DNA of 64,000 nt from an uncultured Chloroflexia bacterium (GTDB lineage: Bacteria; Chloroflexota; Anaerolineae; CG2-30-64-16): positions 1 through 64,000 of the forward strand of contig CAWEMM010000012.1 in assembly GCA_963810095.1 (NCBI GenBank), read 5' to 3'. Below the pieces are notes generated by a model, which saw only the letters and a program-made list of their open reading frames with translations, had not been told where the DNA came from and searched no databases. The first letter of the stretch is position 1. Each line of letters starts with the position of its first letter. Position numbers and translations under genes: made by a program. Below, in pieces: positions 22,951 through 42,699 of this stretch.

Positions 22951-23137
22951 AGATCGGTTCCTCCAATCGGCCGGTTGTGGATTGGCGCGTCGATGCCCGG
23001 TTTTCCGCGAATTCCTCAGTGACGTCGCCCATCGTACTCGCGCTCGGGGAACGATGAGAGGTACGAATAATCGCTAATCAACGTCGATGGACATCATAAA
23101 GATGACCGCTAATCCCTGGAAGGCGAGCCGGCGATCC

Positions 23138-23869
23138 TCAGAACGAGGGTTCGGGGCGCTTGTGGGCGTAGTCTTTGTATCTTCCCAGGGCGCCGGCCAC
23201 CTGAGACATGTGCGCGGCCATCGCCTGGCGCGCAGCCACCGGATCACGGCGCTCAATAGCTTCGAAAACCGCAGCATGACCCACGCGTGCGTTCCCCAGC
23301 TCCCCGGGCACGGTAATCGCCCGGCGCCGGCTCTCGCGCAGCAGGTCGTCCACTGAAGACATGACGACCATGAGGACGGGGTTACGTGTGGCGCGCGCGA
23401 TCGCCGTGTGAAAATTCATGTCACGGATGACGTGCTGCTCGACGCTGTCATTCTCGGGGAGTTCGGCCAGTTCGCGCAGGGTCTCGATCTCGGCGCCGGT
23501 GATGCGCTCGGCGGCCAGCGCCGCCAGTTCGGGTTCGAGGATGCTGCGCAGCTCGTCCAGGTGAAGAAAAGCGTCCTCGCCGTTCATCAGCATCAGCACT
23601 TCCGGATCGAGTGCGTTCCACTGCTCTCTCGGGTTGACCGTCGTTCCCCTGCCGTGCGCGACGCTCGCGACGCCCTTCGCCTCGAGACCGCTGAGCGCCT
23701 CCCGCACCGCCACCCGGCTCGCACCGAACACCTCGGTCAGGTCACGCTCAGACGGCAGCATACTACCGGGTACGTACCGGCCCGTGACAATTGCTTCCAG
23801 AAGCTGCCGCCCGATCTGCTGCCCCAGCTTTTCGCGACGCAGCTCTTGGAAACCAGAGGAGTTGGGCAT
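23138..23869 (-). CDS. FadR/GntR-family transcriptional regulator
   Basis: LPSERDL...FGASRVAVREAL winged HTH; FCD domain DMNFH...NP; divergent from the sugar operon. Confidence 0.93.
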   Translation of the reverse strand: MPNSSGFQELRREKLGQQIGRQLLEAIVTGRYVPGSMLPSERDLTEVFGASRVAVREALSGLEAKGVASVAHGRGTTVNPREQWNALDPEVLMLMNGEDAFLHLDELRSILEPELAALAAERITGAEIETLRELAELPENDSVEQHVIRDMNFHTAIARATRNPVLMVVMSSVDDLLRESRRRAITVPGELGNARVGHAAVFEAIERRDPVAARQAMAAHMSQVAGALGRYKDYAHKRPEPSF

Positions 23870-23912
23870 GCTCGGGCTCCTTGCCACAGCGAGTAATTGT
23901 CAGGAGGTTAAC

Positions 23913-23982
23913 TCATCATACCACCGGGTTAACCCCTTGACAAGCACCTCACTCTCGTAATATCATGGAATTGGTATTATGA
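23913..23982 (+). promoter_or_regulatory. Sigma70-type promoter flanked by two candidate FadR operators
   Basis: TTGACA 23937-42, 18 bp, TATCAT 23961-66; TGGTAT(G/T)ATGA at 23913-23 (minus) and 23972-82 (plus). Confidence 0.65.
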
Positions 23983-24058
23983 CCTAATCACTACGGCGCT
24001 GCCACCCTTCGCAGCCTCCTTCCAGGTCACGTTTCCAGTCGGAGAGGACAAGAAACGA

Positions 24059-25063
24059 ATGACAGACTCGGTACTCCCTACGACCGCCGAGCGCAATGAT
24101 CCCCTCTCGGCCGAACAGCTCCTCGCGCTGTACCGCGGCATGGTCACCATTCGCAAATTCGAGGAGACCGTCTACGAGGTCTACAGCCGCGGCATCATGC
24201 CGGGGCTGGCGCACCTGTATACCGGCATGGAGGCCGTCGCCACCGGCGTTTGCGCGAACCTGCGACCGGCCGACAACATCACGAGCACTCACCGCGGGCA
24301 CGGACACCTGCTGGCCAAAGGCGCCGACCCCGCCCGAATGTTTGCGGAACTGTTGGGCAAAGCCAGCGGCTACAACAAGGGCAAGGGCGGCAGCATGCAC
24401 ATCGTCGATCTGGCCCTCGGCGTCCTCGGGGCCAACGGCATCGTTGCAGGTGGCATGGGCATTGCCACGGGCGCGGGTCTGTCGGCCAGGGTGCTGGGCG
24501 ACGACCGCATCTCTGTCGCGTTCTTCGGCGACGGCGCCCTCAACGAGGGGCTCTTTTACGAGGCCGCCAACATGGCCGCGCTGTGGAAGCTGCCCGTCGT
24601 CTACGTCCTGGAAAACAACTGCTACGGCGAATACACCTCGTGCGATCGCTCGACTTCGGGCAGCGGCCCCGCGCGGGCGGAGGCGCTCGGTATACCCGCG
24701 CTATCGGTGGACGGCAACGACGTGCTCGCCGTGTACGAGGCAGCGGGCTGGGCAACCGGAGTCGCGCGCTCGGGCCAGGGCCCGGCCTTCATCGAGTGCC
24801 AAACGTACCGGTGGCGCGGCCATCACATGGGCGACCAGGGTGACACCTACGGCTATCGGTCGCAGGCCGAAATCGAATCGTGGATGCAAGCATGTCCCAT
24901 CCGGCGATTCCGGTCCTACTTGCAGGACAACATGCCCGCGCTCGAGCCCGAGCTCGATGCCATCGATGCGGCGGTGCAGGCCCTGATCGACCAAGCCGTA
25001 CAGTTTGCCAAAGAAGCGCCGTATCCAGATCCGAGCGAGGTGTACACCGATGTCTACGCCTGA
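24059..25063 (+). CDS. ThDP-dependent dehydrogenase E1 alpha (AcoA/PdhA family)
   Basis: STHRGHGH, GKGGSMH, GDGALNEG...ENN, YRWRGH. Confidence 0.93.
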   Translation: MTDSVLPTTAERNDPLSAEQLLALYRGMVTIRKFEETVYEVYSRGIMPGLAHLYTGMEAVATGVCANLRPADNITSTHRGHGHLLAKGADPARMFAELLGKASGYNKGKGGSMHIVDLALGVLGANGIVAGGMGIATGAGLSARVLGDDRISVAFFGDGALNEGLFYEAANMAALWKLPVVYVLENNCYGEYTSCDRSTSGSGPARAEALGIPALSVDGNDVLAVYEAAGWATGVARSGQGPAFIECQTYRWRGHHMGDQGDTYGYRSQAEIESWMQACPIRRFRSYLQDNMPALEPELDAIDAAVQALIDQAVQFAKEAPYPDPSEVYTDVYA

Positions 25064-26063
25064 GGCCACGCCCGGTCAGGCCGGGTCCGGTCGCACCGGA
25101 ACGATCCGCGAGGCGATTAACGAGGCGCTGCGCGAAGAAATGCGCCGCGACCCGACGATCATCCTGCTGGGCGAGGATATCGGGGTGGCCGGCGGGGTCT
25201 TCAAGGTCACCAACGGCTTGCTCAAAGAGTTCGGCCCGAACCGGGTGTTCGATACGCCGATTGCCGAGGCGGGGATCATGGGGCTGGCAGTGGGCGCGGC
25301 GATGACCGGTCTGCGCCCCATCGTGGAGATCATGTTCTCCGACTTCACCACGTTGGCCTCCGATCAGCTCGTCAACCAGGCCGCCAAGCTCCGCTACATG
25401 ACCGGGGGGCAGTGCAGCATTCCGCTCGTCGTCCGCACGGCGATGGGCGCCAGCCGGCGTGCCGCTGCTCAGCACAGTCAAAGCCTGCAGGCGTGGTACT
25501 GTCACATTCCCGGCCTCAAGGTAGTCATGCCTTCCACACCCGAAGATGCGAAGGGCCTGCTGAAGAGTGCGATCCGCGACGACAACCCGGTCGTCTTCTT
25601 CGAAGACAAGATGATGTACAACCAGCAGGGACCGCTGCCAGTAGATGACTACACCGTCCCGCTTGGGCAGGCGAGGATCCACCGCCCTGGGCAACACGCG
25701 ACCGTCATTTGCACCTCGAGCATGCTCTACCCCGCGCTCGATGCGGCCGAACGCCTGGCGGCGGAAGGTATCGACGTCGAGGTGATCGACCCGCGCACCC
25801 TGTCGCCCCTGGACAACCAGACCCTCGTCACATCGGCGATTAAGACGGCGCACGTCCTGGTTGTGGACGAAGGCTACCGGAGCTTCGGGGTGACCGCAGA
25901 AATCGCTGCCCGGGTGACGGAGGAGGCGTTCGACTACCTGGACGAGCCTGTGCGCCGCCTCGGCGCGGCGGACGTGCCCGTCCCCTTTGCGCCGAGTCTC
26001 GAAGACCTGACGATTCCGAGCGCGGACCAGATCGTGGCGACCATCCACCAGATGTTGGCGTGA
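25050..26063 (+). CDS. ThDP-dependent dehydrogenase E1 beta
   Basis: GEDIG, DTPIAE, EIMFSDF, AAQHSQ, IDPRTL. Confidence 0.93.
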   Translation: MSTPEATPGQAGSGRTGTIREAINEALREEMRRDPTIILLGEDIGVAGGVFKVTNGLLKEFGPNRVFDTPIAEAGIMGLAVGAAMTGLRPIVEIMFSDFTTLASDQLVNQAAKLRYMTGGQCSIPLVVRTAMGASRRAAAQHSQSLQAWYCHIPGLKVVMPSTPEDAKGLLKSAIRDDNPVVFFEDKMMYNQQGPLPVDDYTVPLGQARIHRPGQHATVICTSSMLYPALDAAERLAAEGIDVEVIDPRTLSPLDNQTLVTSAIKTAHVLVVDEGYRSFGVTAEIAARVTEEAFDYLDEPVRRLGAADVPVPFAPSLEDLTIPSADQIVATIHQMLA

Positions 26064-26075
26064 CGGGAGACGCAC

Positions 26076-27509
26076 ATGGCTTACGAAGTCGTCATGCCCC
26101 AACTTGGCCTATCCATGGAGAGCGGCCGGATCGCGCGCTGGCTGAAGCAGAGCGGGCAGGTCGTGACGCCGGGAGACGTCTTACTCGAAGTTGAGAGCGA
26201 CAAGGCGACGGTCGAGGTCGAAGCAGTCGCGAAGGGCGAATTGCAGATCTGTGCGGGAACGCTGGACCGGCAAATCCCGGTCGGCCAGGTCATCGCCTAC
26301 ATCGTCGCAGCCGGAGAAGTCGCACCCGGCGCGCCGGCGGCGGTCCTTGCCACGCCGGGACCCGCAGCGGGTCCAGCCGCCCCGCCCTCGGCAGCACCCA
26401 GCCCCGATCTTGCCGTGGCCCTGGCTGGCGGGGCGAGGCCCCGTTCGAGCCCGGCCGCCCGAAGGCGGGCTCGCGAACTGGGCCTTGACTGGCGCATGGC
26501 CGCCGGCACCGGTCCCAACGGGCGCATCAAAGAGCGCGATGTCCTGCGATTGGCGGCGCCTGCGGCCGCGCGTCAAGAGGCGCCTGTTGAAGCCGGCCCC
26601 GACGCCGACCAGCGCATCTCGCCCTTGGCGCAGCAGCTGGCCCTCGAACTGGGGCTCGACCTGGGGGAGCTGACACAGCGCTTCCCGGGCCGGCGGCTGC
26701 AGCGTGAGCACGTCGTGCAGGCGATCCGGGATATGCTAGCGGAGGCAGGAGGGATGCGGGCCACGCAGCCCGCGGCGGTACCCGCCCCAGCTGAAGCCCG
26801 CCTGCCGGTGCGCCGGGAGGCGCGACGCGAGGCCCTGACAAGCATGCGGCGGCTGATCGCCGAACGCATGGGCCAGAGCAGCCATACCACCGCACCCGTT
26901 ACGCTGACGACCGAAGTGGACGCCACCGAGCTCGTGCGATTGCGCGAGGCACTCCGCCCTGAAGACGGCAACGGTTCGGCGCCCGCCTACAACGTGCTTC
27001 TGGCCAAGCTCGTCGCGTGCGCGTTGCGCGAGCACCCCGAGCTGAACGCCAGCCTCGAAGGCAGCGAAGTCGTCTACTGGGATGTGGTGAACGTCGGCAT
27101 AGCAGTCGACACCCCGCGCGGGCTCGTGGTCCCGGTGCTGTTTGACGTCGCGACGAAGCCGGTCGATACACTGGGCGCTGAAGCTGAAGACTTGCTGGCC
27201 CGCGCACGCAGTGGCAAAGCGCTGCCCGGCGAGTTGGCCGGCGGCACCTTCACGATCACCAATCTTGGCAGCTACCGGATTGATGCGTTTACGCCCATCA
27301 TCAACGCGCCTGAGTGCGCCATTCTGGGCGTGGGCCGCCTCCAACGCCGGCCGGTGGTCGACGAAAGCGGTGCGGTCGTGGTGCGCACGCTGATGTATCT
27401 CAGCCTCACCTTCGATCACCGTCTCGTCGACGGTGCGCCCGCCGCTCGTTTTCTGAAACGGGTGGCCGAATACGTCGAGCAGCCCTATCTTTGGTTGGCC
27501 CGCCTCTAG
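26076..27509 (+). CDS. Dihydrolipoamide acyltransferase E2
   Basis: Lipoyl motif EVESDKA, two subunit-binding-like segments, TFTITNLG, FDHRLVDG. Confidence 0.93.
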   Translation: MAYEVVMPQLGLSMESGRIARWLKQSGQVVTPGDVLLEVESDKATVEVEAVAKGELQICAGTLDRQIPVGQVIAYIVAAGEVAPGAPAAVLATPGPAAGPAAPPSAAPSPDLAVALAGGARPRSSPAARRRARELGLDWRMAAGTGPNGRIKERDVLRLAAPAAARQEAPVEAGPDADQRISPLAQQLALELGLDLGELTQRFPGRRLQREHVVQAIRDMLAEAGGMRATQPAAVPAPAEARLPVRREARREALTSMRRLIAERMGQSSHTTAPVTLTTEVDATELVRLREALRPEDGNGSAPAYNVLLAKLVACALREHPELNASLEGSEVVYWDVVNVGIAVDTPRGLVVPVLFDVATKPVDTLGAEAEDLLARARSGKALPGELAGGTFTITNLGSYRIDAFTPIINAPECAILGVGRLQRRPVVDESGAVVVRTLMYLSLTFDHRLVDGAPAARFLKRVAEYVEQPYLWLARL

Positions 27510-27525
27510 AGAAATGCCAGGTCGC

Positions 27526-28818
27526 ATGATGCAAATACGGGTGCCTTACGGACGAGGGGAGACCCTGGTCGATCTCGGTGGTATCGAGGCCACTGTCGTG
27601 GCAGCCGATCGCTGTGGGTCGGACCCAATCTGCCTGGCCTTGGCCGCGCCGATCGGCTGCCGGCCGCTTCGCGAGCTAGTACGGCCCGGCATGCGCTCGG
27701 TCATTGTCACCAGCGACATCACTCGTCCCTGCCCCACCGCGGCCATGCTTGGCCCCGTGCTCGACGAGTTGGCCCAGGGGGGTGTTGGGGCGACGGACAT
27801 AACCGTCGTCTTTGGCTTGGGCACGCACCGCAAGCACACCGCCGCCGAACAGGCTCAGCTGCTGGGCGAGCATTGCGGCACGGTCCGCTGCTGCGATTCG
27901 GATCCGGACGACACGATGCAAGTCGGCGTCACATCACGCGGCACCCCGGTCGAGGCGTTCCGCCCCGTCGTCGAAGCCGACTTCCGCATTGCGCTCGGCG
28001 TGGTCGAGCATCACTACTTTGCCGGTTATTCCGGCGGGTACAAGGCGCTCGTACCCGGTGTTTGCTCGGCCCGCACGATCCAGCGCAACCATGCCATGAT
28101 GACGGACTCCGGCGCGCGGCTAGGCGTGCTGGAGGGCAACCCCGTGCGCGAGGACATCGAAGAAGCCGCGGCACTGATCGGTCTGGACTTCATCCTCAAC
28201 GCCATCATGCAGCATGGGCACGTCTGCCTGGCTGCGGCGGGCCACCCCGTCCATGCACATCGCTGGGCCTGCAGGGCGCTCGACTACCTGAGCATGGCGC
28301 CGGCAGGCGAACCGGCCGACGTCGTCGTCGTGGGCGCGGGCGGTTATCCCAAAGACATCAACATGTACCAGGCGCAAAAGGCGCTGGACAACGCGGCAGT
28401 TGCGGTCCGCGAGAACGGCATCATCATTTGGGTTGCCGAGTGTCCCGAGGGACTGGGCAACGCGACGTTCGAGAGCTGGATGTTGAACTCCGATCCCGAC
28501 ACGATCCTGGCGCGCATCTGCGAGCAGTTTGTCCTCGGTGGACACAAGGCCGCGGCGGTTGCCTCAGTGCAGAAGCGAGCCGCAATCTGGCTGGTGAGCG
28601 GCCTGCCCGGCTCGGTCGTTCGTGCGTGTGGGATGACGCCCTATGAGGATGCCGGCCGGGCGCTCGCGGATGCCCTGGATCGCTGCGGACCGAACGCGCG
28701 GATCACCGTCATACCGGACGGCGCAACGGTCGTGCCCCGGGTGACGCGCGCCAAGCCGGTATTCGTGTGCCCTGAGCCTGCGCAGGTCGGGCTCGCGCCG
28801 GCCAGCGTGGAGCGGTAA
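27526..28818 (+). CDS. larA: LarA-family (nickel-pincer) 2-hydroxyacid racemase/epimerase
   Basis: SDITRP, LGTHR, HHYFAGYSGGYK, GNPVREDIEE, GGYPKDINMYQAQK, GGHKA. Confidence 0.88.
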   Translation: MMQIRVPYGRGETLVDLGGIEATVVAADRCGSDPICLALAAPIGCRPLRELVRPGMRSVIVTSDITRPCPTAAMLGPVLDELAQGGVGATDITVVFGLGTHRKHTAAEQAQLLGEHCGTVRCCDSDPDDTMQVGVTSRGTPVEAFRPVVEADFRIALGVVEHHYFAGYSGGYKALVPGVCSARTIQRNHAMMTDSGARLGVLEGNPVREDIEEAAALIGLDFILNAIMQHGHVCLAAAGHPVHAHRWACRALDYLSMAPAGEPADVVVVGAGGYPKDINMYQAQKALDNAAVAVRENGIIIWVAECPEGLGNATFESWMLNSDPDTILARICEQFVLGGHKAAAVASVQKRAAIWLVSGLPGSVVRACGMTPYEDAGRALADALDRCGPNARITVIPDGATVVPRVTRAKPVFVCPEPAQVGLAPASVER

Positions 28819-28819
28819 G

Positions 28820-29578
28820 ATGGACCAGGTTTTCAGTCGGCCCCTGGCAGGCCGGGTGGCCGTAGTCACCGGCGCCGCACGAGGCATCGGTTTCGCAATC
28901 TGTGAGACACTTGCATCCGCCGGCGCAGCCGTCGCGCTCGTCGACCTGCAACCTGACGTCCACGCCTCGGCCGAGCGGCTTGCCGGCGCCGGTCTCATTG
29001 CGAAGGCCTGGCTTGCGGACGTAAGCAGCGAGGCCGATGTGCGGGCCGCGGTCGCCGGCATTGCGAGCCATTTCGGGCACATCGACGTCCTGATCAATAA
29101 TGCGGGCATTTGTCCCGTCACGGCACTCCCCGACATCAGCGGGGAAGAATGGGACCGGGTCCTGGCGATCAACCTGAAGGGCGCGTTCCTGTTCAGCCAG
29201 GCGGTCGCACCCCACATGCAGGCCCGCGGGAGTGGCAAGATCGTCAATATCGCTTCCAGTGCGGGCCAGATGGGTGGCCTGGCAGTTGGTTTGCACTATA
29301 CCGCGTCCAAGGCGGCCATTTTGGGCCTGACGAAAGGGCTGGCGCGCATCCTGGCGCCCGCGATCCAGGTGAACGCCGTATCGCCCGGCACCACGGAATC
29401 CGAGATGACGCGGGGCTGGAGCCCGGATGCGGTGACGGCCATTGCCAAGCAGATCCCCCTGCAAAGGCTGGGGCGCCCCGCCGACACGGCGGCGGCGGTG
29501 CTCTTCCTGGCATCCGACGCTGCCGGCTTCATCACCGGACAGACGTTGAGCGTCAACGGCGGCCTTTTCATGAGTTAG
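28820..29578 (+). CDS. SDR-family oxidoreductase
   Basis: TGAARGIG, NNAG, YTASK. Confidence 0.93.
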   Translation: MDQVFSRPLAGRVAVVTGAARGIGFAICETLASAGAAVALVDLQPDVHASAERLAGAGLIAKAWLADVSSEADVRAAVAGIASHFGHIDVLINNAGICPVTALPDISGEEWDRVLAINLKGAFLFSQAVAPHMQARGSGKIVNIASSAGQMGGLAVGLHYTASKAAILGLTKGLARILAPAIQVNAVSPGTTESEMTRGWSPDAVTAIAKQIPLQRLGRPADTAAAVLFLASDAAGFITGQTLSVNGGLFMS

Positions 29579-29633
29579 CCCGCCTGCGCCGCAGCACGAT
29601 CTAGGTCAATGCACGACTACGGAGGGGAGCGCG

Positions 29634-30461
29634 ATGAATTACCGGACAGCCATCCAGGATCGTTTCAAAGGCAAAGTTGCCATCGTGACGGGCGGGGCAT
29701 CGGGCATTGGCCGCGCCATTGTCGAGGAGCTGTGCAAAGAAGGCGCCCAAGTGGCCTTCAGCGGCATCAGCGATATCGGCCTGACCACCACGCAGGAGCT
29801 GCAAGACCAGGGCTTTGACGTGCTCTTCTGCCAGGGCGACATGTGCGACGAGGCATTTTGCATCGACCTGGTCGCCAAGACCGCCGAGCACTTCGGTCAG
29901 ATCAACTATCTCGTCAACAATGCGTTCTCGTTCACGGCCAAGGGCATGGACGCGACCCGCGAGGACTGGGAACGCGTCTTCTTCGTCGGACCTGTGGGTT
30001 ATGCGACGATGACACAGCAGGTCGCGCCCCACATGATCAAGATTGGCGGCGGAGCGATCGTGAACATGTCCAGCATCTCCGCCTATATCGCCCAGACCAA
30101 TCGTTGGACGTATAATGCAGCCAAAGGCGCCGTGGCTCAGCTCACCCGCTGCATGGCCTACGATCTGGCCAAGTACAACATTCGCGTCAATTCCATCAGC
30201 CCCGGCTGGATTTGGACGCGTGAGGTGCTCAAAGCCGCGAACCTGGACGGCGGGGGCCGGGAGAAATGGGACCCCATTTGGGGTGAGTATCACATGCTGG
30301 GCCGGTGTGGCGAACCGGTCGAGTGCGCGGGACCGACCCTCTTCCTGCTCAGCGACGACGCATCCTTCATCACCGCCACCGACGTTGCGGTGGACGGCGG
30401 CTACTGCAGCATGGGGCCGGAAGGCCTGGGTAAGACGACCGTCCTGGCCGGCTCAAAGTAG
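29634..30461 (+). CDS. SDR-family oxidoreductase
   Basis: TGGASGIG, NNA, YNAAK. Confidence 0.93.
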   Translation: MNYRTAIQDRFKGKVAIVTGGASGIGRAIVEELCKEGAQVAFSGISDIGLTTTQELQDQGFDVLFCQGDMCDEAFCIDLVAKTAEHFGQINYLVNNAFSFTAKGMDATREDWERVFFVGPVGYATMTQQVAPHMIKIGGGAIVNMSSISAYIAQTNRWTYNAAKGAVAQLTRCMAYDLAKYNIRVNSISPGWIWTREVLKAANLDGGGREKWDPIWGEYHMLGRCGEPVECAGPTLFLLSDDASFITATDVAVDGGYCSMGPEGLGKTTVLAGSK

Positions 30462-30476
30462 AGAGCGGAGAGACCC

Positions 30477-31331
30477 ATGATGGATTTTCCACTCGTCGAC
30501 ACCCACTTGCACTTGTGGGATCCCGGCTACCTGCGTTATCCCTGGCTGGACGATAACGCGCTCCTCAACAAGCCGTATCTGCCGGCCGATTATCGCCGCC
30601 ACTGCGGCCCGGTCGACGTCGAAAAGATGGTCTTCGTCCAGTGCGAGGTCGACTTCTCCCAGTTCCAGGCCGAAGCGGACTGGGTGACCTCGCTCGCCCA
30701 GGGGCCCGAGCCGCGGATTAGCGGCATTGTGCCCTGGGCGCCGCTGGAGTTGGGGGACGCCGCACGGCCGGCCCTCGAGAAGCTTGCCACCAATCCCCTC
30801 ATCAAGGGCATCCGCCGGATCATCCAGTTCGAGCCCGATCCCGAGTTCTGCCTGCGACCCGACTTCGTACGTGGAGTGCAGGCGCTGGCCGACTATGGTC
30901 TGCACTTCGAGATCTGCATCGTCCACACCCAGATGAAAAACACGATCAAGCTGGTCGAGCAGTGCCCCAACGTGAGCTTCCTCCTCGATCACATCGGCAA
31001 GCCGGGCATCAAGGATCACATCGTCGAGCCGTGGAAGCAGGACCTGGTGACGCTGGCGGGCGCGGGGAACGTGTGGTGCAAGATGTCGGGCCTGGTGACC
31101 GAGGCCGACCACCAGCGCTGGACCCCCGCGGACTTGCAGCCCTACATCGACCATGTCCTCGACACCTTCGGCTTCGATCGCACGATGTATGGCGGTGACT
31201 GGCCCGTGGCATACCAGGCCACCGAGTATCCGCGCTGGGTCGAAACGCTGGAGCGGGCGGTCGAAGGGTGCGCGCCCGAGGAGAAACGGCAGCTATTCCG
31301 GGAGACGGCAATTCGCTTCTATCGACTGTAA
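30477..31331 (+). CDS. Amidohydrolase-fold sugar lactonase (L-fucono/L-rhamnono-lactonase-like)
   Basis: DTHLHLW, LDHIGKP, CKMSGL, FGFDRTMYGGDWPV. Confidence 0.85.
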   Translation: MMDFPLVDTHLHLWDPGYLRYPWLDDNALLNKPYLPADYRRHCGPVDVEKMVFVQCEVDFSQFQAEADWVTSLAQGPEPRISGIVPWAPLELGDAARPALEKLATNPLIKGIRRIIQFEPDPEFCLRPDFVRGVQALADYGLHFEICIVHTQMKNTIKLVEQCPNVSFLLDHIGKPGIKDHIVEPWKQDLVTLAGAGNVWCKMSGLVTEADHQRWTPADLQPYIDHVLDTFGFDRTMYGGDWPVAYQATEYPRWVETLERAVEGCAPEEKRQLFRETAIRFYRL

Positions 31332-31393
31332 ACTGGATCGCGCGGACGTGTGCCGGAAACCGGCACCCCTGTGCGACATGGCAAAGGAGCGCT

Positions 31394-32920
31394 ATGGCAG
31401 ATCAGGCGCCTATCCTGCGAGCCACCGGCATTCACATGGCCTTCGACGGCGTGGACGTGCTGAAGGGCGTCAGTATCGAGCTCCACGCCGGCGAAGTCCT
31501 GGGGCTGATCGGCGAGAACGGCGCGGGTAAGTCCACCCTGGCCAAGATCATCGCGGGCGTGTATCGGGCGCGCGAAGGGCGCATTGAGATCGACGGAACG
31601 GAAGTCCACGTCCAGAGCCCCCACGTCGCCTCTACGCTCGGCATTGCGCTGATCCACCAGGAACCACTCACTTTCCCGGACCTCGACATTGCAGAGAACA
31701 TCTTCATTGGGCACCAGCCCACGCAGGCGGGCCGCGTCGACTGGGTGACCACCTACCGCCGCGCCGGCGAAATCCTCGCTTCCCTCGGCGTGAAGCTGGA
31801 CCCCAGAACGAAGGTGCGCGGGCTGTCCATCGCCGACCAACAGATGGTCGAAATGGCGGCTGCGCTCTCGCAGGATGCCCGCATCCTCCTCATGGACGAG
31901 CCCACCGCGGCCTTGACCCCCAGCGAAGTCGCCGACCTTTTCACGATCATCCGCCGCCTGCGTGACCAAGGCACCGCCGTCGTGTTCGTGAGCCACCGCC
32001 TCGAAGAGGTGTTCGACATCTGCGACCGGATCACCGTGCTGCGCGACGGTGAGTTCGTGGGTGAGCGCGACGCAAAGACCACCTCGGTCGACGAGATCAT
32101 CCGGATGATGGTTGGACGGCCCCTCAGTGCGCTGTTCGAGCGGCCGGCCGTCTTGCAGCGCGGCGAGGCTCCGCTGCTCGAGGTGCAGCATCTCTCCCGG
32201 GCGATGAAGTTTGAAGACATCTCCTTCAACGTGCGGGCGGGCGAAATTGTTGGGATGGCTGGTCTGGTCGGCTCGGGACGCACGGAAGTCGCACGTGCAC
32301 TATTCGGAACGCTCGTGCCCGACAGTGGCGAAATCCGCATCAACGGCGCCGTAGTGAAGATCAGGAACCCGCAGGACGCCATGGCCCGCGGCCTGATCTA
32401 CCTGCCCGAGGACCGGCAAAACCACGGCCTGCTGATGCCGATGTCGATCTCCCAAAACATGACGCTGCCCGTGTTGAAGCGGCTTGCGCCCCACGGGTGG
32501 CTGCACGCGGCGGTGGAGCGCCAGGTTGCGCTCCAGTATGCCGAGAAGCTGCGCATTGTGCTCCGCAGCGTCAACCAGCCGGTGCGCGAGTTGTCGGGTG
32601 GCAATCAACAGAAGGTCGTCATCTCGAAATGGCTGCTCGTCGAGCCGAAGATCATGGTCCTCGACGAACCGACCCGCGGCATTGACATCGGCGCGAAAGC
32701 GGAAGTGCACCGCTTGATGGGCGAGCTTGCTTCGCAGGGCATGGCGATCCTGATGATCTCCTCCGAACTACCCGAGGTGCTGGCGATGAGCGATCGAGTG
32801 CTGGTGATGCGGGAGGGCCGGCTGGTGGCCCAGTTCGACCGCGAACAGGCCAACTCCGAGCGCATCATGGCGGCAGCCACGGGCCAACAAGCAGCCGCCG
32901 AGCTGCCGGTGAAGGAGTAG
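31394..32920 (+). CDS. Monosaccharide ABC transporter ATPase (two ABC domains)
   Basis: [34 protein letters not shown]. Confidence 0.95.
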
Positions 32921-32923
32921 CCG

Positions 32924-33953
32924 ATGGCGACGACATCCACCTCCATTCGGCGGCCTCCGGGGAGCGCGGGGCTGGCGATCAAGCTGGCCCGCTTCCGTGA
33001 AGTGGGCATCGTGCTCTTCCTGTTGATCATCGTGGCCGGTGCGGCGATCGTCGAGCCGCGTTTCCTCACGCTGTTCAACCTACGAAGCATCCTGCTGTGG
33101 GTGCCGTTGCTCACCGTGATTGCCATGGGTGAGATGATGGTCATCATCACCCGCGGCATCGACGTTTCGGTCGGGTCCGTCATGGGCTTCGCCGGCATCG
33201 TTGTCGGCATGATCTTTCGGGATCATCCCGGTTTCAACATCTACCTGGGCGCGGTCCTCGCGCTCCTGATCGGCGCAGCGCTCGGCTCGATCAACGGCGG
33301 ACTGGTTGCCTGGGCGAAGGTGCCGCCCATCATCACCACGCTCGGCACCCTCAGCGCATTCCGCGGCCTCACGTTCGTCGTGAGCGGCGGGCGCCAAATT
33401 GATCCGAACCACGTCCCCCGGGAGCTGATCCGCTGGTCGCAAGTGGGCCCATTCGACTTCGAGTATGCGCCCTGGGTAGTCGTCATCGCGGCTCGCGGTG
33501 ACGCTGCTGGCCTACCTGTTCCTGCGGTTCGTCCGGCTAGGACGCTACATCTATGCCTTTGGCAGCAACCCGGAAGCAGCGCAGCTGCGCGGCATCCCAG
33601 TCGCACGTACGGCGTTCACCGTGTACCTCATCACGGGTGCGATGGCCGGCCTGGCGGGCTTGCTCTATGCCTCGCGCATGGGTTTCGTCAACCCAGGCCA
33701 GACGGGCGTGGGGTTTGAACTGACAGTCATCGCCGCCGTGGTGATCGGCGGCACAAACGTGTTCGGGGGCTCGGGATCCGTCATCGGCGTGCTGCTCGGC
33801 TGCCTGCTCCTCGGCACCATTAACGTTGCGCTGGCAGTGCTGGGGATCGCGGCGACCTGGCAGCTAGCCGTCTACGGTTTCGTTATCCTGCTGGCCGTGG
33901 TGACCGACGCCATTATCCAGGCCGAGCTGCGCCGCGCAGCCACAGGGGAGTGA
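32924..33953 (+). CDS. Monosaccharide ABC permease (indel near 33495)
   Basis: [18 protein letters not shown] and [12 protein letters not shown] split over two frames. Confidence 0.9.
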
Positions 33954-33957
33954 TCAC

Positions 33958-35007
33958 TTGAACGACGATATTCAACACACCCCCGTACAGCTATCGTCCA
34001 AGCCGCCGCGCGGCGCCCTGCAATCGCGTGTCCGTTCGGCCCTGTCCAGGCCCGAGGCGATTACCACCGCCCTCCTGATCATCGCGTTCATCGTGGGCGC
34101 GCTCCTGTCGCCCTACTTCCTGGACCTGAACTTCCTGCTCAACAATACGTCGGTCTACGTTGAGATCGGCCTGATGGCGCTAGGGCTGACGTTCGTTATC
34201 ATCAGCAACAACATCGACCTGTCGGTTTCGAGCATCCTCGCGCTGGTCGGGTGCGTCGTGGGCGTCCTCTACTTCAACCTCAAAGTACCGATGGCGCTCG
34301 CAATCCCCATCTCGATCCTCGTCGGGGTCGGCCTGGGCTGGGTGAACGGCACCCTGATGACGCGCGTCAAGCTGCCTTCGCTCACGGTCACGCTCGGCAC
34401 GATGGCGCTCTTCCGTGGGACCGCCAACATCCTCCTGGGAGACGAGTCGCTGCCGAAGATGGCGTTCCAGGCGAAGGCAGGTTACCCGGCCTGGTTTGTG
34501 GGCGTCGACCAGTGGATGATCCCGGGCACGTTCATCCCCATGCCGCTGGTGATCTTCCTGGTCGCGGCGGTGATACTGGGCCTGCTGCTGCACCGCACGA
34601 CCTTCGGCCGGTGGGTCTACGCGATCGGGACGAACGAAGGTGCGTCGCGCTACGCGGGCATCCCGGTCGACCGCATCAAGGTCATTATCTTCTCGCTGTC
34701 GGGGCTCTTGTGTGCGTTGGCCGGCCTCATCATGGTGTCGCGGCTCGGCGTATCCCGCTATGACCACGCCCGGGGCTGGGAGCTCGATGCAATCACGGCT
34801 GTCGTGCTCGGCGGTACGAGCATCAACGGCGGCCGCGGGAGCATCTTTGGCACGGTCATGGCTTTCTTCCTCATCGTGATCCTGCGCACCGGCATGGGCG
34901 TCGCCAACGTCAAAGCCGAAAGCCAGCTGACCATCATCGGTGCGCTGCTGATCGTGTCGGTCGTGGCATCCAACTTCGCAAACCGCTTGCGGAGTTCGCC
35001 AAAGTGA
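33958..35007 (+). CDS. Monosaccharide ABC permease
   Basis: IDLSV, FGRWVYAIGTN, WELDAITAVVLGG. Confidence 0.93.
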   Translation: MNDDIQHTPVQLSSKPPRGALQSRVRSALSRPEAITTALLIIAFIVGALLSPYFLDLNFLLNNTSVYVEIGLMALGLTFVIISNNIDLSVSSILALVGCVVGVLYFNLKVPMALAIPISILVGVGLGWVNGTLMTRVKLPSLTVTLGTMALFRGTANILLGDESLPKMAFQAKAGYPAWFVGVDQWMIPGTFIPMPLVIFLVAAVILGLLLHRTTFGRWVYAIGTNEGASRYAGIPVDRIKVIIFSLSGLLCALAGLIMVSRLGVSRYDHARGWELDAITAVVLGGTSINGGRGSIFGTVMAFFLIVILRTGMGVANVKAESQLTIIGALLIVSVVASNFANRLRSSPK

Positions 35008-35178
35008 GTCCCCGCTGAGGATGCAGAGGCCAAGGGGAGGTGCAAGGAGGTGAATCAGCAGCAAAGCAGCGTGTCCCACGCCTCACTGGCGTAGAACTCA
35101 GCCAGCCCGGAGCTGGCATGCCAGCACAGTCGGCGATAGCGAGGCCGATCAACTACACGTGCTCAACAAGGAGGAAAG

Positions 35179-36273
35179 ATGAACGTCAAGCGGTTCGGAC
35201 TCTGGATGGCCGTCGTGGTCATCCTGAGCATGCTGCTCACCGCGTGCGCCCCTGCTGCGCAGGCACCGGCTGCCGCGACCCAAGCGCCGGCGGCGGCAAC
35301 CCAAGCACCCGCCGCTGCGGCTGGGGACAAGATCAAGATCGTCTACATCCCCAAGAACACGGGTAACCCGTACTTCGACTCGATCATCAACGGCTTCAAG
35401 AAGTCCTGTGAAGAGCAGGGCTGCGACTTCACGACCACCGCGCCTGCCACCGCCGAGGCAACCTCGCAGTTGTCCTTCGTCAAGGAACAGATCCAGCGCG
35501 GGGTGAATGTGCTCGCTATCTCGCCCAATAGCCCGGATGCACTGAACTCCGTCTTCGACGAGGCCCGCGGCAAGGGCATCAAGGTGCTGATCGTCAATTC
35601 CGATATCCCGGGGAACGAGACGCACCGCGATGCGGCCGTGCTGCCGATGGACTTCAACATCACCGGCAAGAGCCAGATCGAGCTCATGTGCTCGCTCATC
35701 GACTGCGAAGGCAAGATTGCAGTCCTTTCCGCGACGGCCGACGCTCCCGATCAGAACTTCTGGATCGAGGGGATGAAGGAGACGCTGAAGGATCCGAAGT
35801 ACAGCAAGATGCAGCTGGTCGACGTGGTCTTCGGCAACGACGACCCTCAGAAGAGCCTGACCGAGTGTGAAGGCTTGCTCTCCAAGTACCCGGATCTCCG
35901 CGGCATCATCGCCCCGACGACCGTGGGCGTCGCGGCGGCGGCGCAGTGCGTGGAATCGGCCGGCGTGTACCCGGGCGGCAAGAATGCGGTGGGCAAGGGC
36001 CTGGAAGTAACCGGCCTGGGCACCCCGAACCAGATGCGCCGCTTCGTCGACTCGGGCATCGTCAAGAAGTTCGCGCTGTGGAGCCCCTACGATGAGGGTT
36101 ACCTGTCGGGCTACCTGGCCACCGCCCTGGCGAGCGGCAAGGTGAAGCCGGCCGAGGGTGTGACCTTCGACGTGCCGAATCTCGGCCAGCGCCAGTTTGC
36201 GAAGAACAACGTCGTCATCACCGGCCCGCCGACCGTCTTCGACAAGGCCAACCTACCAAACTTCAACTTCTAG
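35179..36273 (+). CDS. Sugar ABC substrate-binding lipoprotein, RhaS/LsrB-like
   Basis: Lipobox LTAC; PKNTGNPYF, DQNFWI, APTTVG, VTGLGTPNQM, FALW. Confidence 0.9.
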   Translation: MNVKRFGLWMAVVVILSMLLTACAPAAQAPAAATQAPAAATQAPAAAAGDKIKIVYIPKNTGNPYFDSIINGFKKSCEEQGCDFTTTAPATAEATSQLSFVKEQIQRGVNVLAISPNSPDALNSVFDEARGKGIKVLIVNSDIPGNETHRDAAVLPMDFNITGKSQIELMCSLIDCEGKIAVLSATADAPDQNFWIEGMKETLKDPKYSKMQLVDVVFGNDDPQKSLTECEGLLSKYPDLRGIIAPTTVGVAAAAQCVESAGVYPGGKNAVGKGLEVTGLGTPNQMRRFVDSGIVKKFALWSPYDEGYLSGYLATALASGKVKPAEGVTFDVPNLGQRQFAKNNVVITGPPTVFDKANLPNFNF

Positions 36274-36288
36274 TTCCGTCGTACTGCT

Positions 36289-36317
36289 GAGGGTGGCGGG
36301 CAGTTCCCGCCACCCTC
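36289..36317 (+). terminator. Stem-loop after the substrate-binding gene
   Basis: gagggtggcggg-cagtt-cccgccaccctc, a perfect 12-bp stem. Confidence 0.65.
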
Positions 36318-36333
36318 GTCATTTGGAGGACGT

Positions 36334-36654
36334 ATGAAGCGCATTGGGTTCTTGCTTAAGGTCCGAGAGGAAAAGATCCCCGAATATGTGGAGCACCACA
36401 AGCACGTGTGGCCCGACATGCAGGAGGCACTGCGTCGGAACGGGTGGCACAACTACTCCCTCTTCATGCGCGACGACGGCCTGATGTTTGGCTATTTCGA
36501 AGCGCCGGTCGATTTCGCGACGGCGCTGGATGGGATGTCTCAGGAAGAGGTAAACGCCCGCTGGGGCGACTTTATGAAGCCGTTTTTCGAGGCGCCGAGC
36601 GGCCGGCCCGACGAGAACATGCTCGAATTGACCGAGGTGTTCCACCTGGACTAA
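36334..36654 (+). CDS. rhaM: L-rhamnose mutarotase family protein
   Basis: EYVEHHKHVWP, NYSLF, LTEVFHLD. Confidence 0.88.
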   Translation: MKRIGFLLKVREEKIPEYVEHHKHVWPDMQEALRRNGWHNYSLFMRDDGLMFGYFEAPVDFATALDGMSQEEVNARWGDFMKPFFEAPSGRPDENMLELTEVFHLD

Positions 36655-36755
36655 AGGACTCTCAGTATCATCATGTGGGCTGGCGCCGGTCTTCGACCGT
36701 GCCCCTGGCGGGCGGCGTCCTCATGCAGGGCGGCCGCCCGCCCCGCTGGCTGGCG

Positions 36756-38246: not shown

Positions 38247-38365
38247 CCTTCGTAGCCTGTCATGGCACATGCTCCTCTGCTGAAATGATGCGCAGGAACA
38301 AGTCTCTCCAACGCCAGCCCAGACGCACTCGTCAGGGCTCACGCGAAACCCGCTCCTGCAGCGGT

Positions 38366-38818: not shown

Positions 38819-38849
38819 GCTTGCGCATCCCCTTCCGACCCATTTGCTA

Positions 38850-38904
38850 CATCGTATCCTTACGATGATATCGTCTTTATACGATATAATGCGTGATTTG
38901 TCAA
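38850..38904 (-). promoter_or_regulatory. Promoter with two tandem palindromic ArsR-type operators
   Basis: TTGACA-17-TATAAA on the minus strand; catcgta-tcct-tacgatg (38850-67) and atatcgt-ctttat-acgatat (38868-87). Confidence 0.75.
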
Positions 38905-38909
38905 GCCCC

Positions 38910-39332: not shown

Positions 39333-39369
39333 CTTGCTCCGTCTCCGCAACGCAAGGTGCCGGCCGGCT

Positions 39370-42657: not shown

Positions 42658-42699
42658 GTTGCTCTCTCCTTGACTCGATGAAGGCCTGATTTGCCGAGC

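Follow-up and report, generated by a model that had tools for sequence, protein, structure and literature searches.

How is the carbon chain of a sugar cut by a bacterium whose catabolic operon encodes neither a dehydratase nor an aldolase? All oxidative sugar routes known to us proceed via a 2-keto-3-deoxy acid, which is formed by a dehydratase. The question is raised by positions 23138-36654 of a 64,000-nucleotide stretch of contig CAWEMM010000012.1 from an uncultured Chloroflexia bacterium (the whole stretch is called the window below). Here, genes for sugar uptake and sugar oxidation stand in one operon with a homologue of the racemase LarA and with the E1alpha, E1beta and E2 components of a complex depending on thiamine diphosphate (ThDP) and lipoate. 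We conclude that the operon is most likely a dehydratase-free variant of oxidative rhamnose (deoxysugar) catabolism, built of known enzyme families. More specifically, it may be a self-contained, GntR-controlled operon for oxidative, non-phosphorylative L-rhamnose use without dehydratase or aldolase, in which the E1/E2 complex would cleave a 5-keto acid. Judged from sequence comparison, this model has a probability of roughly 0.4.

Gene content and layout of the operon

The genes were called from the list of open reading frames (ORFs) and from Pfam and NCBIfam profile scans of the region 23138-36654. Twelve structural genes, all on the plus strand, follow one another with intergenic gaps of at most about 170 bases, and the regulator alone is located on the minus strand (23138-23887; GntR 67.3 bits, FCD 88.5 bits; FadR subfamily). 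The first three structural genes encode E1alpha of a heterotetrameric-type ThDP-dependent dehydrogenase (24059-25063; E1_dh 264.8 bits), E1beta (25005-26063, likely start near 25050; Transket_pyr 170.9 and Transketolase_C 133.2 bits) and the dihydrolipoyl acyltransferase E2 with one lipoyl domain (26076-27509; Biotin_lipoyl, E3_binding and 2-oxoacid_dh). They are followed by the LarA homologue, which is of the malate-racemase (Mar2/LarAH6) type (27514-28818; Lar_N 184, LarA_C 76.8 bits), and by two short-chain dehydrogenases/reductases (SDRs): SDR1, which resembles FabG, gluconate 5-dehydrogenase and KduD (28820-29578; adh_short_C2 213.7 bits), and the aldose-dehydrogenase-like SDR2 (29634-30461; adh_short_C2 191.2 bits). 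Next comes an Amidohydro_2 hydrolase, the proposed aldonolactonase (30477-31331; Amidohydro_2 148.9 bits). A sugar importer of the ATP-binding cassette (ABC) type is encoded by the genes for an ATPase with two ABC domains (31268-32920, likely start near 31394; ABC_tran in two stretches), permease 1, which is distributed over two reading frames (32924-33953; BPD_transp_2 in the ORFs 32924-33718 and 33498-33953), permease 2 (33958-35007; BPD_transp_2 148.5 bits) and a RhaS-like lipoprotein as substrate-binding protein (35179-36273; Peripla_BP_4 204.8 bits). The last gene encodes a RhaM-family mutarotase (36334-36654; rhaM 95.4 bits, cut-off 23.4). The catalytic motifs are intact in E1alpha, E2, SDR1 and SDR2, and both SDRs contain TGxxxGIG and YxxxK.

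A first reading of this DNA, made from its letters without database searches (the sequence-only reading), had described a FadR-associated operon with a RhaS-like ABC system, a mutarotase, two SDRs, a lactonase, LarA and E1alpha/E1beta/E2. All these genes were confirmed; their actual order differs from that in which they had been listed. It had also stated that the operon has no kinase, isomerase, dehydratase or aldolase, and indeed neither the Pfam nor the NCBIfam scans detected such domains in it. In the 64-kb window, MR_MLE, ILVD_EDD, FAH, HpcH/DHDPS and class II aldolase domains were found in none of the 62 ORFs scanned, and the sole sugar kinase among these is a PfkB protein (56172-57362) encoded 20 kb from the operon.

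The spacer between the regulator gene and E1alpha harbors two back-to-back candidate promoters at 23915-23966, proposed from consensus matches only. The sigma-70-like site on the plus strand (TTGACA-18-TATCAT) matches the consensus at 11 of 12 positions, and that on the minus strand (TTGTCA-17-TATGAT, with TG) at 10 of 12. They are the two best of eight such sites in 22900-37200 (shuffled sequences: 2.0 +/- 1.7). A terminator scan of the region revealed no enrichment (nine found, 8.4 expected). The best NCBIfam matches of the regulator are NanR, LldR, GlcC and PdhR, all below cut-off. In the 36 other loci with both genes, the regulator orthologue is always directly upstream of E1alpha and on the same strand, so that among the loci in which a regulator was seen the divergent orientation is restricted to the window. 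No palindromic operator upstream of E1alpha is common to the 37 loci searched; the reason is that the regulator of the relatives has the orientation of the operon, so that their spacers do not correspond to that of the window.

Conservation of the operon and its linkage to rhamnose genes

For comparison we used genomes of the same class (G codes; G000 is the genome containing the window) and individual loci of genomes, plasmids and metagenomes (L codes). E1alpha orthologues with at least 68% identity are present in 6 of 301 class genomes including G000, the next best match being 57% identical. In the five further genomes (G043, G168, G273, G091 and G299) E1alpha is 68-75% identical, and in all six E1beta, E2, two SDRs, a lactonase-type hydrolase and a sugar ABC system are arranged in one string with it. 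G043, G168 and G273, which belong to one genus, have the order GntR, E1alpha, E1beta, E2, SDR1, LarA, SDR2, Cyclase-family hydrolase, ABC system and RhaM; in G043 and G168 a gene for an aldehyde:ferredoxin oxidoreductase (AOR) is inserted between binding protein and RhaM. The Amidohydro_2 form occurs in G091; LarA is absent from the operon there, and a LarA of the malate racemase (MAR) type lies together with an AOR divergently upstream. G299 harbors an SMP-30 lactonase, a different ABC system and no LarA, and an AOR is located downstream.

A metagenome scan with E1alpha, in which the layout was determined by tblastn, returned 80 loci, 38 of them with an E1alpha 69-77% identical. Sixteen of the 38 reach past E2 and are informative for the gene order. 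An SDR follows E2 in all 16: six have LarA after SDR1, in six SDR1 and SDR2 adjoin directly, two end at SDR1, and two are of the G299 type. At least 120 metagenome protein clusters are about 70% or more identical to E1alpha. Genes of the enolase superfamily and of the IlvD/EDD, UxaA, FAH, HpcH and DHDPS families were found inside none of the operons of the six genomes and 16 informative contigs. For the metagenome operons, the ORFs that the tblastn panel left unassigned were scanned with Pfam, which revealed neither a dehydratase nor an aldolase or FAH. This gene arrangement is far from chance; the same core recurs in five other genomes and 38 metagenome contigs. The proposal of the sequence-only reading that E1/E2 and LarA stand in place of dehydratase and aldolase is borne out to the extent that the operons are free of both in the six genomes and in the 16 metagenome loci (of 38) that reach past E2, and the recurrence of the core in these genomes and contigs is what its suggested check of neighbourhood conservation called for.

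Which sugar enters the pathway? The binding protein, which carries the lipobox LLTAC and is 81-84% identical in G043, G168, G273 and G091, by far best matches the model of the rhamnose ABC binding protein (TIGR02637, 279.4 bits, cut-off 342.25). The best matches of the ATPase, also below cut-off, are xylose and ribose ATPases. RhaM scores 59.6 bits against the NCBIfam L-rhamnose mutarotase model (cut-off 99.6). Relatives have rhaA or rhaI, rhaB and rhaD immediately adjoining the operon. The operon of G091 continues directly with genes for an FGGY kinase, a class II aldolase and RhaA (686 bits) and with that of an AOR/class II aldolase fusion protein. Behind RhaM, G273 encodes RhaI (TIGR02635, 556.8 bits, cut-off 531.35) and a kinase, and G168 a xylose-isomerase-like TIM-barrel protein, a presumed isomerase unscored against the RhaI model. 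Further, rhaA or rhaI lies beside the regulator gene in 5 of the 38 metagenome loci (L125, L135, L136, L139 and L150). Since RhaS is the best model, RhaM is present and rhaA/rhaI, rhaB and rhaD adjoin in relatives, the rhamnose-type operons are likely to serve L-rhamnose or a very similar 6-deoxyhexose. The caution of the sequence-only reading that the substrate may not be rhamnose has lost ground through this contiguity. The G299-type operon probably serves another sugar.

Some additional genes were observed at rhamnose loci. Two of the metagenome contigs encode a small ASRT-family protein (Anabaena sensory rhodopsin transducer fold, PF07100) between rhaI/rhaA and GntR (L125:8682-9137 and L136:1498-1920). 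In G000, rhaI and an FGGY kinase gene at C6:1.214-1.228 Mb (L114) are located among genes for a B12-binding protein and several URO-D/MtaA-like methyltransferase homologues, together with DeoR::binding-protein fusions and a sugar ABC system, and rhaA at C12:374-381 kb (L113) adjoins URO-D-like genes. These two clusters may serve the demethylation of O-methylated deoxysugars ahead of rhamnose catabolism.

The same linkage permits a different reading, in which E1/E2, LarA and AOR form the lower part of a phosphorylative rhamnose pathway (L-lactaldehyde to lactate, pyruvate and acetyl-CoA) and SDRs and lactonase serve another sugar, or in which they have an unrelated function in acetoin or D-malate metabolism and merely share the regulator. 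In line with this, rhaA/rhaI, rhaB, rhaD and AOR::aldolase fusions adjoin the operon in G091, G273, L125 and L139 (in G168 the presumed isomerase), a LutA-like gene follows in G091, and E1/E2 and LarA are found without sugar genes in G015, G037 and L076. However, the string of E1/E2, SDR, lactonase and ABC genes is on its own in G000 and, within the limits of the contigs, in the G299-type loci, where neither an isomerase nor a kinase or aldolase gene is close to it. Four families have preserved the order E1-E2-SDR-(LarA)-SDR-lactonase-ABC under a single regulator. The signature of LarA, moreover, is not that of a lactate racemase. We therefore regard a lower-pathway role as improbable. At L103:1494-3776 (G091), L125:4671-7075 and L139:4659-7063, AOR and class II aldolase form a fusion or are immediately joined; this unit is encoded between rhaA/rhaI and rhaB and seems to be an AOR-based equivalent of the RhaEW aldolase/lactaldehyde-dehydrogenase fusion described in PMC3870299.

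Alternatively, the operon could belong to the known oxidative route, with the missing enzymes encoded elsewhere. The non-phosphorylative L-rhamnose pathways (LRA1-LRA4 and LRA5/LRA6; Azotobacter, Sphingomonas and fungi) have in common with it the importer type, a mutarotase, an SDR 1-dehydrogenase, a lactonase, a second SDR and the absence of phosphorylation. They differ in that the operons encode no L-rhamnonate dehydratase, 2-keto-3-deoxy-L-rhamnonate aldolase or FAH hydrolase and have the ThDP/lipoyl E1-E2 and LarA instead; the products proposed here would be acetyl-CoA and a C4 dicarboxylate, whereas the LRA pathways yield pyruvate and lactaldehyde or lactate. If a dehydratase and a diketo hydrolase acted from other loci, the SDRs would be L-rhamnose 1-dehydrogenase and 2-keto-3-deoxy-L-rhamnonate 4-dehydrogenase, E1/E2 would be a pyruvate dehydrogenase, and LarA would handle lactate or malate in product disposal. 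Two SDRs and an Amidohydro_2 lactonase would indeed match LRA1, LRA2 and LRA5 as these enzymes are generally known, the first four steps of the pathway being set out in PMC3870299. Further, E1beta passes a subfamily model named after pyruvate dehydrogenase, the regulator resembles LldR and PdhR, and G000 harbors an FAH gene (213.4 bits) and a split acid-sugar-dehydratase-like gene (115.6 bits).

A search of the genomes argues against this possibility. The cut-off of the L-rhamnonate dehydratase model NF011968 was reached in none of the six operon-bearing genomes. The best score in G000 is 113.8-115.6 bits (cut-off 393), and in the five others, which are 77-100% complete, the only match (19 bits) is in the 100%-complete G043, the remaining four having none. 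G000 contains five or six enolase-superfamily genes, one FAH gene and one IlvD/EDD gene, the last adjoining leuB; five enolase-superfamily loci, the FAH and the IlvD gene were considered as the missing enzymes and set aside, as they have no deoxysugar context and reach no rhamnonate-pathway cut-off. The FAH (213 bits, cut-off 500) and the dehydratase-like gene (115.6 bits, cut-off 393) lie in inositol-like and GMC oxidoreductase cluster contexts, and neither enzyme is encoded in the operons of the six genomes and 16 contigs, all of which have E1/E2. HpcH, DHDPS and FAH genes are absent from the operons; the aldolase families were not searched genome-wide. In addition, E1alpha fails both PdhA equivalog models and LarA lacks the lactate-racemase signature. 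Thus, the search for a missing dehydratase, also suggested by the sequence-only reading, left in G000 the candidates at C9:78 kb and C12:696.6 kb and the FAH gene, the first two of which are not conserved with the operon. We consider it unlikely that the operon is part of the known pathway.

Proposed chain cleavage, LarA and the possible fate of the C4 product

What we observed directly is the gene content and its conservation, the families and signatures to which the proteins belong, and the neighbourhood of AOR, tartrate dehydrogenase and rha genes; from this we infer the chemical steps described in the following. The RhaS-like ABC system would import L-rhamnose, and RhaM would equilibrate its anomers. 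One SDR, probably SDR2, would then oxidise C1 to give the lactone, which the Amidohydro_2 enzyme would open to L-rhamnonate. The other SDR, probably SDR1, would oxidise C5 to give 5-dehydro-L-rhamnonate, a methyl ketone beside a carbinol and thus an acetoin analogue. The E1 component would cut the bond between C4 and C5, and E2 would transfer the two-carbon unit via lipoate to coenzyme A (CoA), yielding acetyl-CoA, while a housekeeping E3 would reoxidise lipoate. The other product, tartaric semialdehyde (2,3-dihydroxy-4-oxobutanoate), would be oxidised to tartrate by AOR, in G000 by a paralogue encoded elsewhere.

The assignment of SDR2 as L-rhamnose 1-dehydrogenase and of SDR1 as aldonate dehydrogenase is proposed from their family resemblances. 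SDR1 scores below cut-off with the gluconate 5-dehydrogenase subfamily (201.1 bits, cut-off 279) and KduD (183.2, cut-off 338.85) and passes a broad subfamily named glucose 1-dehydrogenase (226.5, cut-off 215); its PDB matches are FabG-like and include gluconate 5-dehydrogenase 5u9p (E 2.6e-43). SDR2, which is 71-78% identical in four rhamnose-type genomes, scores 149 bits with aldose dehydrogenase (cut-off 341) and 147.1 with L-fucose dehydrogenase (cut-off 300). Its best PDB match, 8eh2/8gbb, is listed in PMC10449147 as an SDR from Acinetobacter without known function, and the PDB relatives of neither SDR indicate a substrate. A third SDR, absent from the window, is encoded beside the lactonase or Cyclase gene in four metagenome loci (L120:8757-9572, L122, L125:16291-17106 and L136:7798-8814); it is about 85% identical among them and about 34% identical to SDR2.

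Although SDRs and a lactonase-type hydrolase are present, no equivalog cut-off for L-rhamnose 1-dehydrogenase or L-rhamnonolactonase is reached. The only NCBIfam match of the Amidohydro_2 protein is L-fucono-1,5-lactonase (148.8 bits, cut-off 400), and its best PDB match is 4dlf (E 1.6e-24). Its only solved relatives and its NCBIfam match thus belong to the oxidative L-fucose pathway of Burkholderia and Xanthomonas, and SDR2 weakly resembles L-fucose dehydrogenase. However, the scores of both proteins are far below cut-off, fuconate dehydratase and hydrolase are absent, and the neighbourhood in the relatives is one of rhamnose genes. The lactonase slot is occupied by three unrelated hydrolase families: Amidohydro_2 in G000, G091, L120 and L122, Cyclase (PF04199) in G043, G168, G273 and seven metagenome loci, and SMP-30 in G299, L118 and L128. 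Such displacement fits the easy hydrolysis of a lactone following oxidation at C1, and it backs the first steps of the sequence-only reading, from aldose via lactone to aldonate.

Central to the model is the E1/E2 complex. E1alpha, E1beta and E2 have the domains of a 2-oxoacid or acetoin dehydrogenase complex; E1alpha contains the ThDP motif GDG..NN, and E2 the lipoyl-lysine motif ESDKA and the catalytic DHRLVDG. The pyruvate dehydrogenase complex has the same domain architecture in all three components, and E1beta passes the pyruvate-dehydrogenase-named NCBIfam subfamily NF006667 (410.8 bits, cut-off 321). In contrast to that complex, E1alpha remains below both PdhA equivalog cut-offs (TIGR03182, 338 versus 393.85 bits; TIGR03181, 209.7 versus 411.35), E2 reaches no NCBIfam equivalog cut-off (291.9 versus 722 and 283.4 versus 445 with the pyruvate dehydrogenase E2 models), the setting is a sugar operon, and E3 is missing from it. 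One Lpd homologue, 41% identical to a Gracilibacter E3, is encoded at C6:1580078-1581457 of G000. Eleven kilobases upstream of the lipoyl-dependent E2, the window also encodes a 506-residue lipoate-protein ligase A/B-domain protein (11095-12615).

In acetoin dehydrogenase, the ThDP of E1 attacks a methyl ketone beside a carbinol, which leads to acetyl-CoA and sets an aldehyde free. Aldehyde release by E1 is the mark of this type of reaction, as opposed to the decarboxylation of a 2-oxoacid. The acetoin dehydrogenase system (AcoA/AcoB/AcoC/AcoL) shares with the operon the heterotetrameric-type E1alpha/E1beta, the lipoyl E2 and the proposed kind of reaction, and some close metagenome homologues of E1alpha carry automatic acoA-type JGI labels. 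It differs from the operon by its substrate, since a six-carbon sugar acid and the release of a C4-acid aldehyde are proposed here, and by the context, since the operon lacks E3, AcoX and AcoR. The sequence-only reading had named acetoin-dehydrogenase-type cleavage as a side option; with aldehyde-oxidising genes recurring beside E1/E2, this is now the version that we favour.

Related E1/E2 sets were observed at other loci. At C9:324-334 kb (L102), G000 harbors a second E1alpha/E2 set (E1alpha 50% identical) next to genes for an FAH hydrolase, two SDRs, an amidohydrolase, a thioesterase and IolD/IolB-like proteins. E1alpha homologues about 49-53% identical are part of sugar-transporter clusters in Phaeobacter gallaeciensis plasmid pGal_E78 (L109) and Sinorhizobium meliloti pRM41A (L110); the Phaeobacter plasmid cluster (E1alpha 52% identical) comprises a sugar ABC system, two SDRs, a separate lipoyl protein, E2 and Lpd. 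Judged from these homologues, sugar derivatives may be cleaved by ThDP/lipoyl enzymes in a wider range of bacteria.

Chemical precedent for the proposed cut comes from 5-keto-D-gluconate. According to PMC12016104, its ThDP-dependent cleavage between C4 and C5 to tartaric semialdehyde and further to tartrate was proposed for plants (grapevine), and the cleavage was shown with an engineered transketolase (Gluconobacter), a semialdehyde dehydrogenase leading on to tartrate. There, the enzyme is a transketolase, the C2 unit goes to an acceptor and the route is biosynthetic or engineered; here, a catabolic E1/E2 would release acetyl-CoA from a 6-deoxy substrate.

The comparative evidence for E1/E2 in place of dehydratase and aldolase does not fix the position of the cut, and the same logic could operate with another regiochemistry. 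Thus, 4-keto-L-rhamnonate could give lactyl-CoA and tartronate semialdehyde, the products could be acetaldehyde and tartryl-CoA, or a 3-keto acid could lose its carboxyl group to give a 5-deoxypentulose, which E1 would split to glycolyl-CoA and L-lactaldehyde. A gene resembling tartronate-semialdehyde reductase and L-threonate dehydrogenase (189 bits, cut-off 397, and 180.8, cut-off 350) is found in G091 beside a LarA-like gene and an AOR, and AOR would be equally suited to acetaldehyde or lactaldehyde. However, since tartronate is achiral and the F-F-W signature of lactate racemases is missing, it is hard to see what a MAR-type LarA would do in two of the versions, and the tartryl-CoA version needs a thioesterase or ligase that is absent from the Chloroflexota operons. 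Only the 5-keto version involves the closest analogue of acetoin and leads directly to acetyl-CoA, and only for it did we find a chemical precedent (PMC12016104). A cut at another position is in our view the least unlikely of the competing readings, but still unlikely.

What could LarA contribute? Both Lar_N and LarA_C are above the Pfam cut-offs. Its best solved relative is the malate racemase Mar2 (PDB 6d6z, E 3.7e-103), and the best of five LarA-family NCBIfam models is that of the malate racemase LarAH6 (NF052593, 448.7 bits, cut-off 500), followed by LarAH5 (329.6), LarAH10 (311.6) and LarA (299.2). The protein contains the motifs DITRPCP, GLGTHRKH, EHHYF..GGYK, AQK and GGHK; DITRPCP, GLGTHRKH, EHHYFAGYSGGYK and NHAMM align with the equivalent residues of Mar2. 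The two catalytic histidines and the Arg, Lys and His binding the nickel-pincer nucleotide (NPN) have their equivalents (R75, H108, H174, K184 and H200 of Lactiplantibacillus plantarum LarA). Residue roles and the specificity rules of the subgroups are given in PMC11770544 and PMC7583248. According to these sources, lactate racemases have F, F and W at the specificity positions (section 6 of PMC11770544; PMC7583248), gluconate 2-epimerases E, V/S, A and H/N at four positions, and malate racemases Q before the lysine of helix 11 and H/Q-K (G-H-K motif) at the positions of W358/T359 of LarA, where the lysine probably holds the second carboxylate. The window LarA has Y, F, H and K at the four positions. 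It has a Y-F loop, its helix 11 carries Q-K, and its helix 14 carries G-H-K. This malate-racemase signature is shared by every LarA in or beside the operons, some with H instead of Q before the lysine.

Compared with Mar2/LarAH6 of Thermoanaerobacterium thermosaccharolyticum (PDB 6d6z/7s91), the window LarA thus has the catalytic histidines, the NPN-binding R/K/H, Q-K and G-H-K in common. It differs in its sub-cut-off score, in the loop after the second catalytic histidine (Y-F versus Y-K in Mar2), in its location in a sugar operon with E1/E2 and in the proposed native substrate, meso-tartrate instead of malate. Three malate racemases epimerise D- and L-tartrate to meso-tartrate as a side activity (PMC11770544), and the malate-racemase type is the largest LarA group, with an open in vivo role (PMC7583248, PMC11770544). 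Because of the Mar2-type signature and of this side activity, a C4 dicarboxylic hydroxyacid, and not an aldonate, is the expected substrate. LarC (PF01969) is encoded at C2:115139-116260 of G000 (474.6 bits). Among 61 related genomes, clear LarA orthologues are found only outside the genus (G043 63%, G015 56%, G037 52%, G052 47% identity), the best matches in the same genus being about 35-41% identical. Elsewhere in G000, an AOR is paired with a LarA paralogue at C12:583-589 kb (L111) and C12:690-698 kb (L112). One of these pairs is accompanied by CoA-transferase, Liv-type ABC and GlcD/GlcF-like D-2-hydroxyacid oxidase genes, the other by a UxaA-type dehydratase and a Gfo/Idh/MocA oxidoreductase, and the two paralogues lack the MAR signature (HQY/GQQR and HQF/GPHK).

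The sequence-only reading had assigned to LarA the C2 epimerisation of the aldonate, after which the second SDR would produce a 2-keto-aldonate and E1/E2 would decarboxylate it to a C5 polyhydroxyacyl-CoA. This route has the merit that E1/E2 complexes normally use 2-oxoacids and that LarA homologues epimerising gluconate and mannonate exist (PMC7583248); in G000 and the g24 genomes, moreover, LarA is located between E2 and the SDRs. But the MAR signature (Y-F loop, Q-K, G-H-K) instead of the E/V/A/H set of gluconate epimerases makes C2 epimerisation unlikely, and half of the rhamnose-type contigs have no LarA between the SDRs. Nor is a thioesterase, CoA-transferase or further enzyme for 5-deoxypentonyl-CoA linked, and the recurrent AOR, the tartrate dehydrogenase and the acylating aldehyde dehydrogenase with SucCD would be without a role. 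We find this route as improbable as a lower-pathway function. The plain lactate racemase, which would also have spoken against it, is not indicated either, as the window LarA does not have the F-F-W signature. In outline the sequence-only reading is partly supported by our analysis, and it went wrong on the role of LarA.

The aldehyde-oxidising step of the model is an addition to the earlier scheme, and AOR genes are recurrently linked. An AOR is present in or beside the operon in G043, G168, G091, G299 and 7 of the 38 metagenome loci. It lies beside a MAR-type LarA in G091 and L116, beside a tartrate dehydrogenase gene in L118 (TIGR02089, 547 bits, cut-off 470.4), and in G037 together with E1/E2 and LarA without a sugar transporter. 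By our own estimate, adjacency to an AOR within 10 kb would occur by chance in a few per cent of loci, related genomes not being independent. The Gracilibacter locus L076, which has no sugar genes, harbors an acylating aldehyde dehydrogenase and a SucCD-like ligase between E3 and LarA, and in the Phaeobacter plasmid cluster a gene annotated as succinate-semialdehyde dehydrogenase is located between the lipoyl protein and E2. G000 (6.1 Mb) encodes at least six AOR paralogues.

By our own derivation from textbook stereochemistry, C2 and C3 of L-rhamnonate are in the erythro configuration, so the tartrate formed would be meso-tartrate. LarA would invert one of its centres, giving D- or L-tartrate for tartrate dehydratase or dehydrogenase. 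An alternative to an epimerase is a tartrate dehydrogenase that acts on meso-tartrate as a decarboxylase. A tartrate-dehydrogenase-like gene of G000, 60% identical to that of L118, lies beside a DeoC aldolase gene and a sugar ABC system, and G000 also has a split class-I fumarase/tartrate-dehydratase-like gene. We considered the Iso_dh protein beside the AOR in G299 as a malate/tartrate dehydrogenase replacing LarA and rejected it, since it scores as LeuB (491.8 bits, cut-off 353) and not as tartrate dehydrogenase (257.6, cut-off 470.4). It is tempting to combine these steps into a 6-deoxyhexose route with an acetoin-dehydrogenase-like E1/E2 acting on 5-dehydro-L-rhamnonate, a tungsten-type AOR and LarA as a physiological tartrate epimerase. 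This full version is tentative and somewhat doubtful.

Several observations weigh against the model. On the side of the chemistry, acetoin-type and 2-oxoacid E1 are not distinguishable by sequence, and the oxidised position and the cleaved bond are guesses. The window operon contains no AOR or other aldehyde dehydrogenase. In relatives a full set of phosphorylative rhamnose genes lies next to the operon, and the AORs found there, of which two form fusions with a class II aldolase, might simply oxidise L-lactaldehyde, E1/E2 then serving pyruvate. The link to tartrate dehydrogenase comes from the single contig L118, because the Iso_dh of G299 scores as LeuB. As to LarA, LarAH62 prefers malate over tartrate by roughly 60- to 180-fold (PMC11770544), and the proposed pathway yields no malate, the preferred substrate of MARs. 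No LarA is found between the SDRs in 6 of the 16 informative metagenome loci, about half of the rhamnose-type contigs, and three G299-type loci have none; because of this the main line of the model does not depend on LarA. Finally, G000 is only 88.5% complete and contains rhaA, rhaI, rhaB and rhaD scattered elsewhere in the genome. It also contains, as candidates for the known route, the split dehydratase-like gene at C9:78 kb (115.6 bits with the L-rhamnonate dehydratase model, cut-off 393), the UxaA-type dehydratase beside a LarA paralogue at C12:696.6 kb, and on another contig the FAH of L102, whose best model is 2,4-didehydro-3-deoxy-L-rhamnonate hydrolase (213.4 bits, cut-off 500).

Assembly, surroundings and significance of the operon

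In the gene of permease 1, a surplus base at about 33491 breaks the reading frame. The permease orthologue of G043 aligns to 32924-33490 in frame 1 and to 33492-33950 in frame 2, and one base at 33490 is missing in contigs of three of the four sequencing runs compared (X1, X7 and X9; two DNA libraries and one RNA library). Since these independent contigs are without the extra base, the break is an assembly error or a strain variant and does not speak for decay. In contigs of three runs, position 35111, which lies between the genes for permease 2 and the binding protein, is followed by an additional G, a probable single-base assembly difference. The metagenome-assembled genome (MAG) G000 consists of 16 contigs (6.1 Mb). 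Overlapping ORF pairs with the same Pfam match were seen in it for a major facilitator superfamily gene, a response regulator, permease 1, rhaA, two AORs, a LarA paralogue and the second E2 (window 21336-22950, 17757-18690 and 32924-33953; C12:373.5 kb, C12:583-586 kb, C12:690-692 kb and C9:328-329 kb). As several genes are split and the extra base of permease 1 is absent from independent contigs, single-base assembly errors are likely throughout this MAG. Almost all of the operon is tiled by contigs of a DNA run labelled soil metagenome with about 0.2-2% differences, and parts of it are present in runs labelled freshwater sediment; runs with small word shares were disregarded for the habitat. 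Contigs of the RNA library X7 cover E1alpha, E1beta, E2, LarA, both SDRs, the ATPase and the binding protein, which is a weak hint at transcription and not a proof.

Just downstream of the operon, at 36756-43414 of the window, an arsenic-resistance-like cluster encodes S-adenosylmethionine (SAM) methyltransferases, an ArsC-like low-molecular-weight phosphatase, a thioredoxin::SBF (Acr3-like) fusion and an ArsR regulator. The region 46623-49654 encodes a fusion of CHAT protease and FGE-sulfatase domains; next to it come a SIR2_2 protein and several large ORFs without Pfam matches, and together they may be a defence-type island.

In the literature searched (full texts, with few subscription journals and no supplements) we found no ThDP/lipoyl complex or LarA homologue in rhamnose or fucose catabolism and no 5-keto-rhamnonate. 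The text of PMC3870299, a comparative genomics study of rhamnose pathways, contains neither the word "racemase" nor "pyruvate dehydrogenase". An association with E1/E2 may already be recorded in Table S1 of PMC7583248, which deals with the genomic contexts of LarAH proteins.

The operon is important for several reasons. It is not limited to one MAG, as shown by at least 120 homologous E1alpha clusters and by its occurrence in soil and freshwater sediment runs. The cassette is found with other transporters (G299 type) and, distantly, on roseobacter plasmids, and it may be a general module for keto-aldonate cleavage. If the model is true, it would represent a new way of breaking a sugar chain, in which a ThDP/lipoyl complex replaces dehydratase and aldolase. 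It would widen the substrate range of the pyruvate/acetoin dehydrogenases and provide the first sugar-acid substrate for a complex of the 2-oxoacid dehydrogenase type. To our knowledge, tartrate epimerase activity has an EC (Enzyme Commission) number and no assigned gene. The model would give the malate-racemase-type LarA a physiological role and make it the first LarA placed in a sugar pathway beyond the gluconate/mannonate case. Last but not least, it would explain a source of microbial meso-tartrate.

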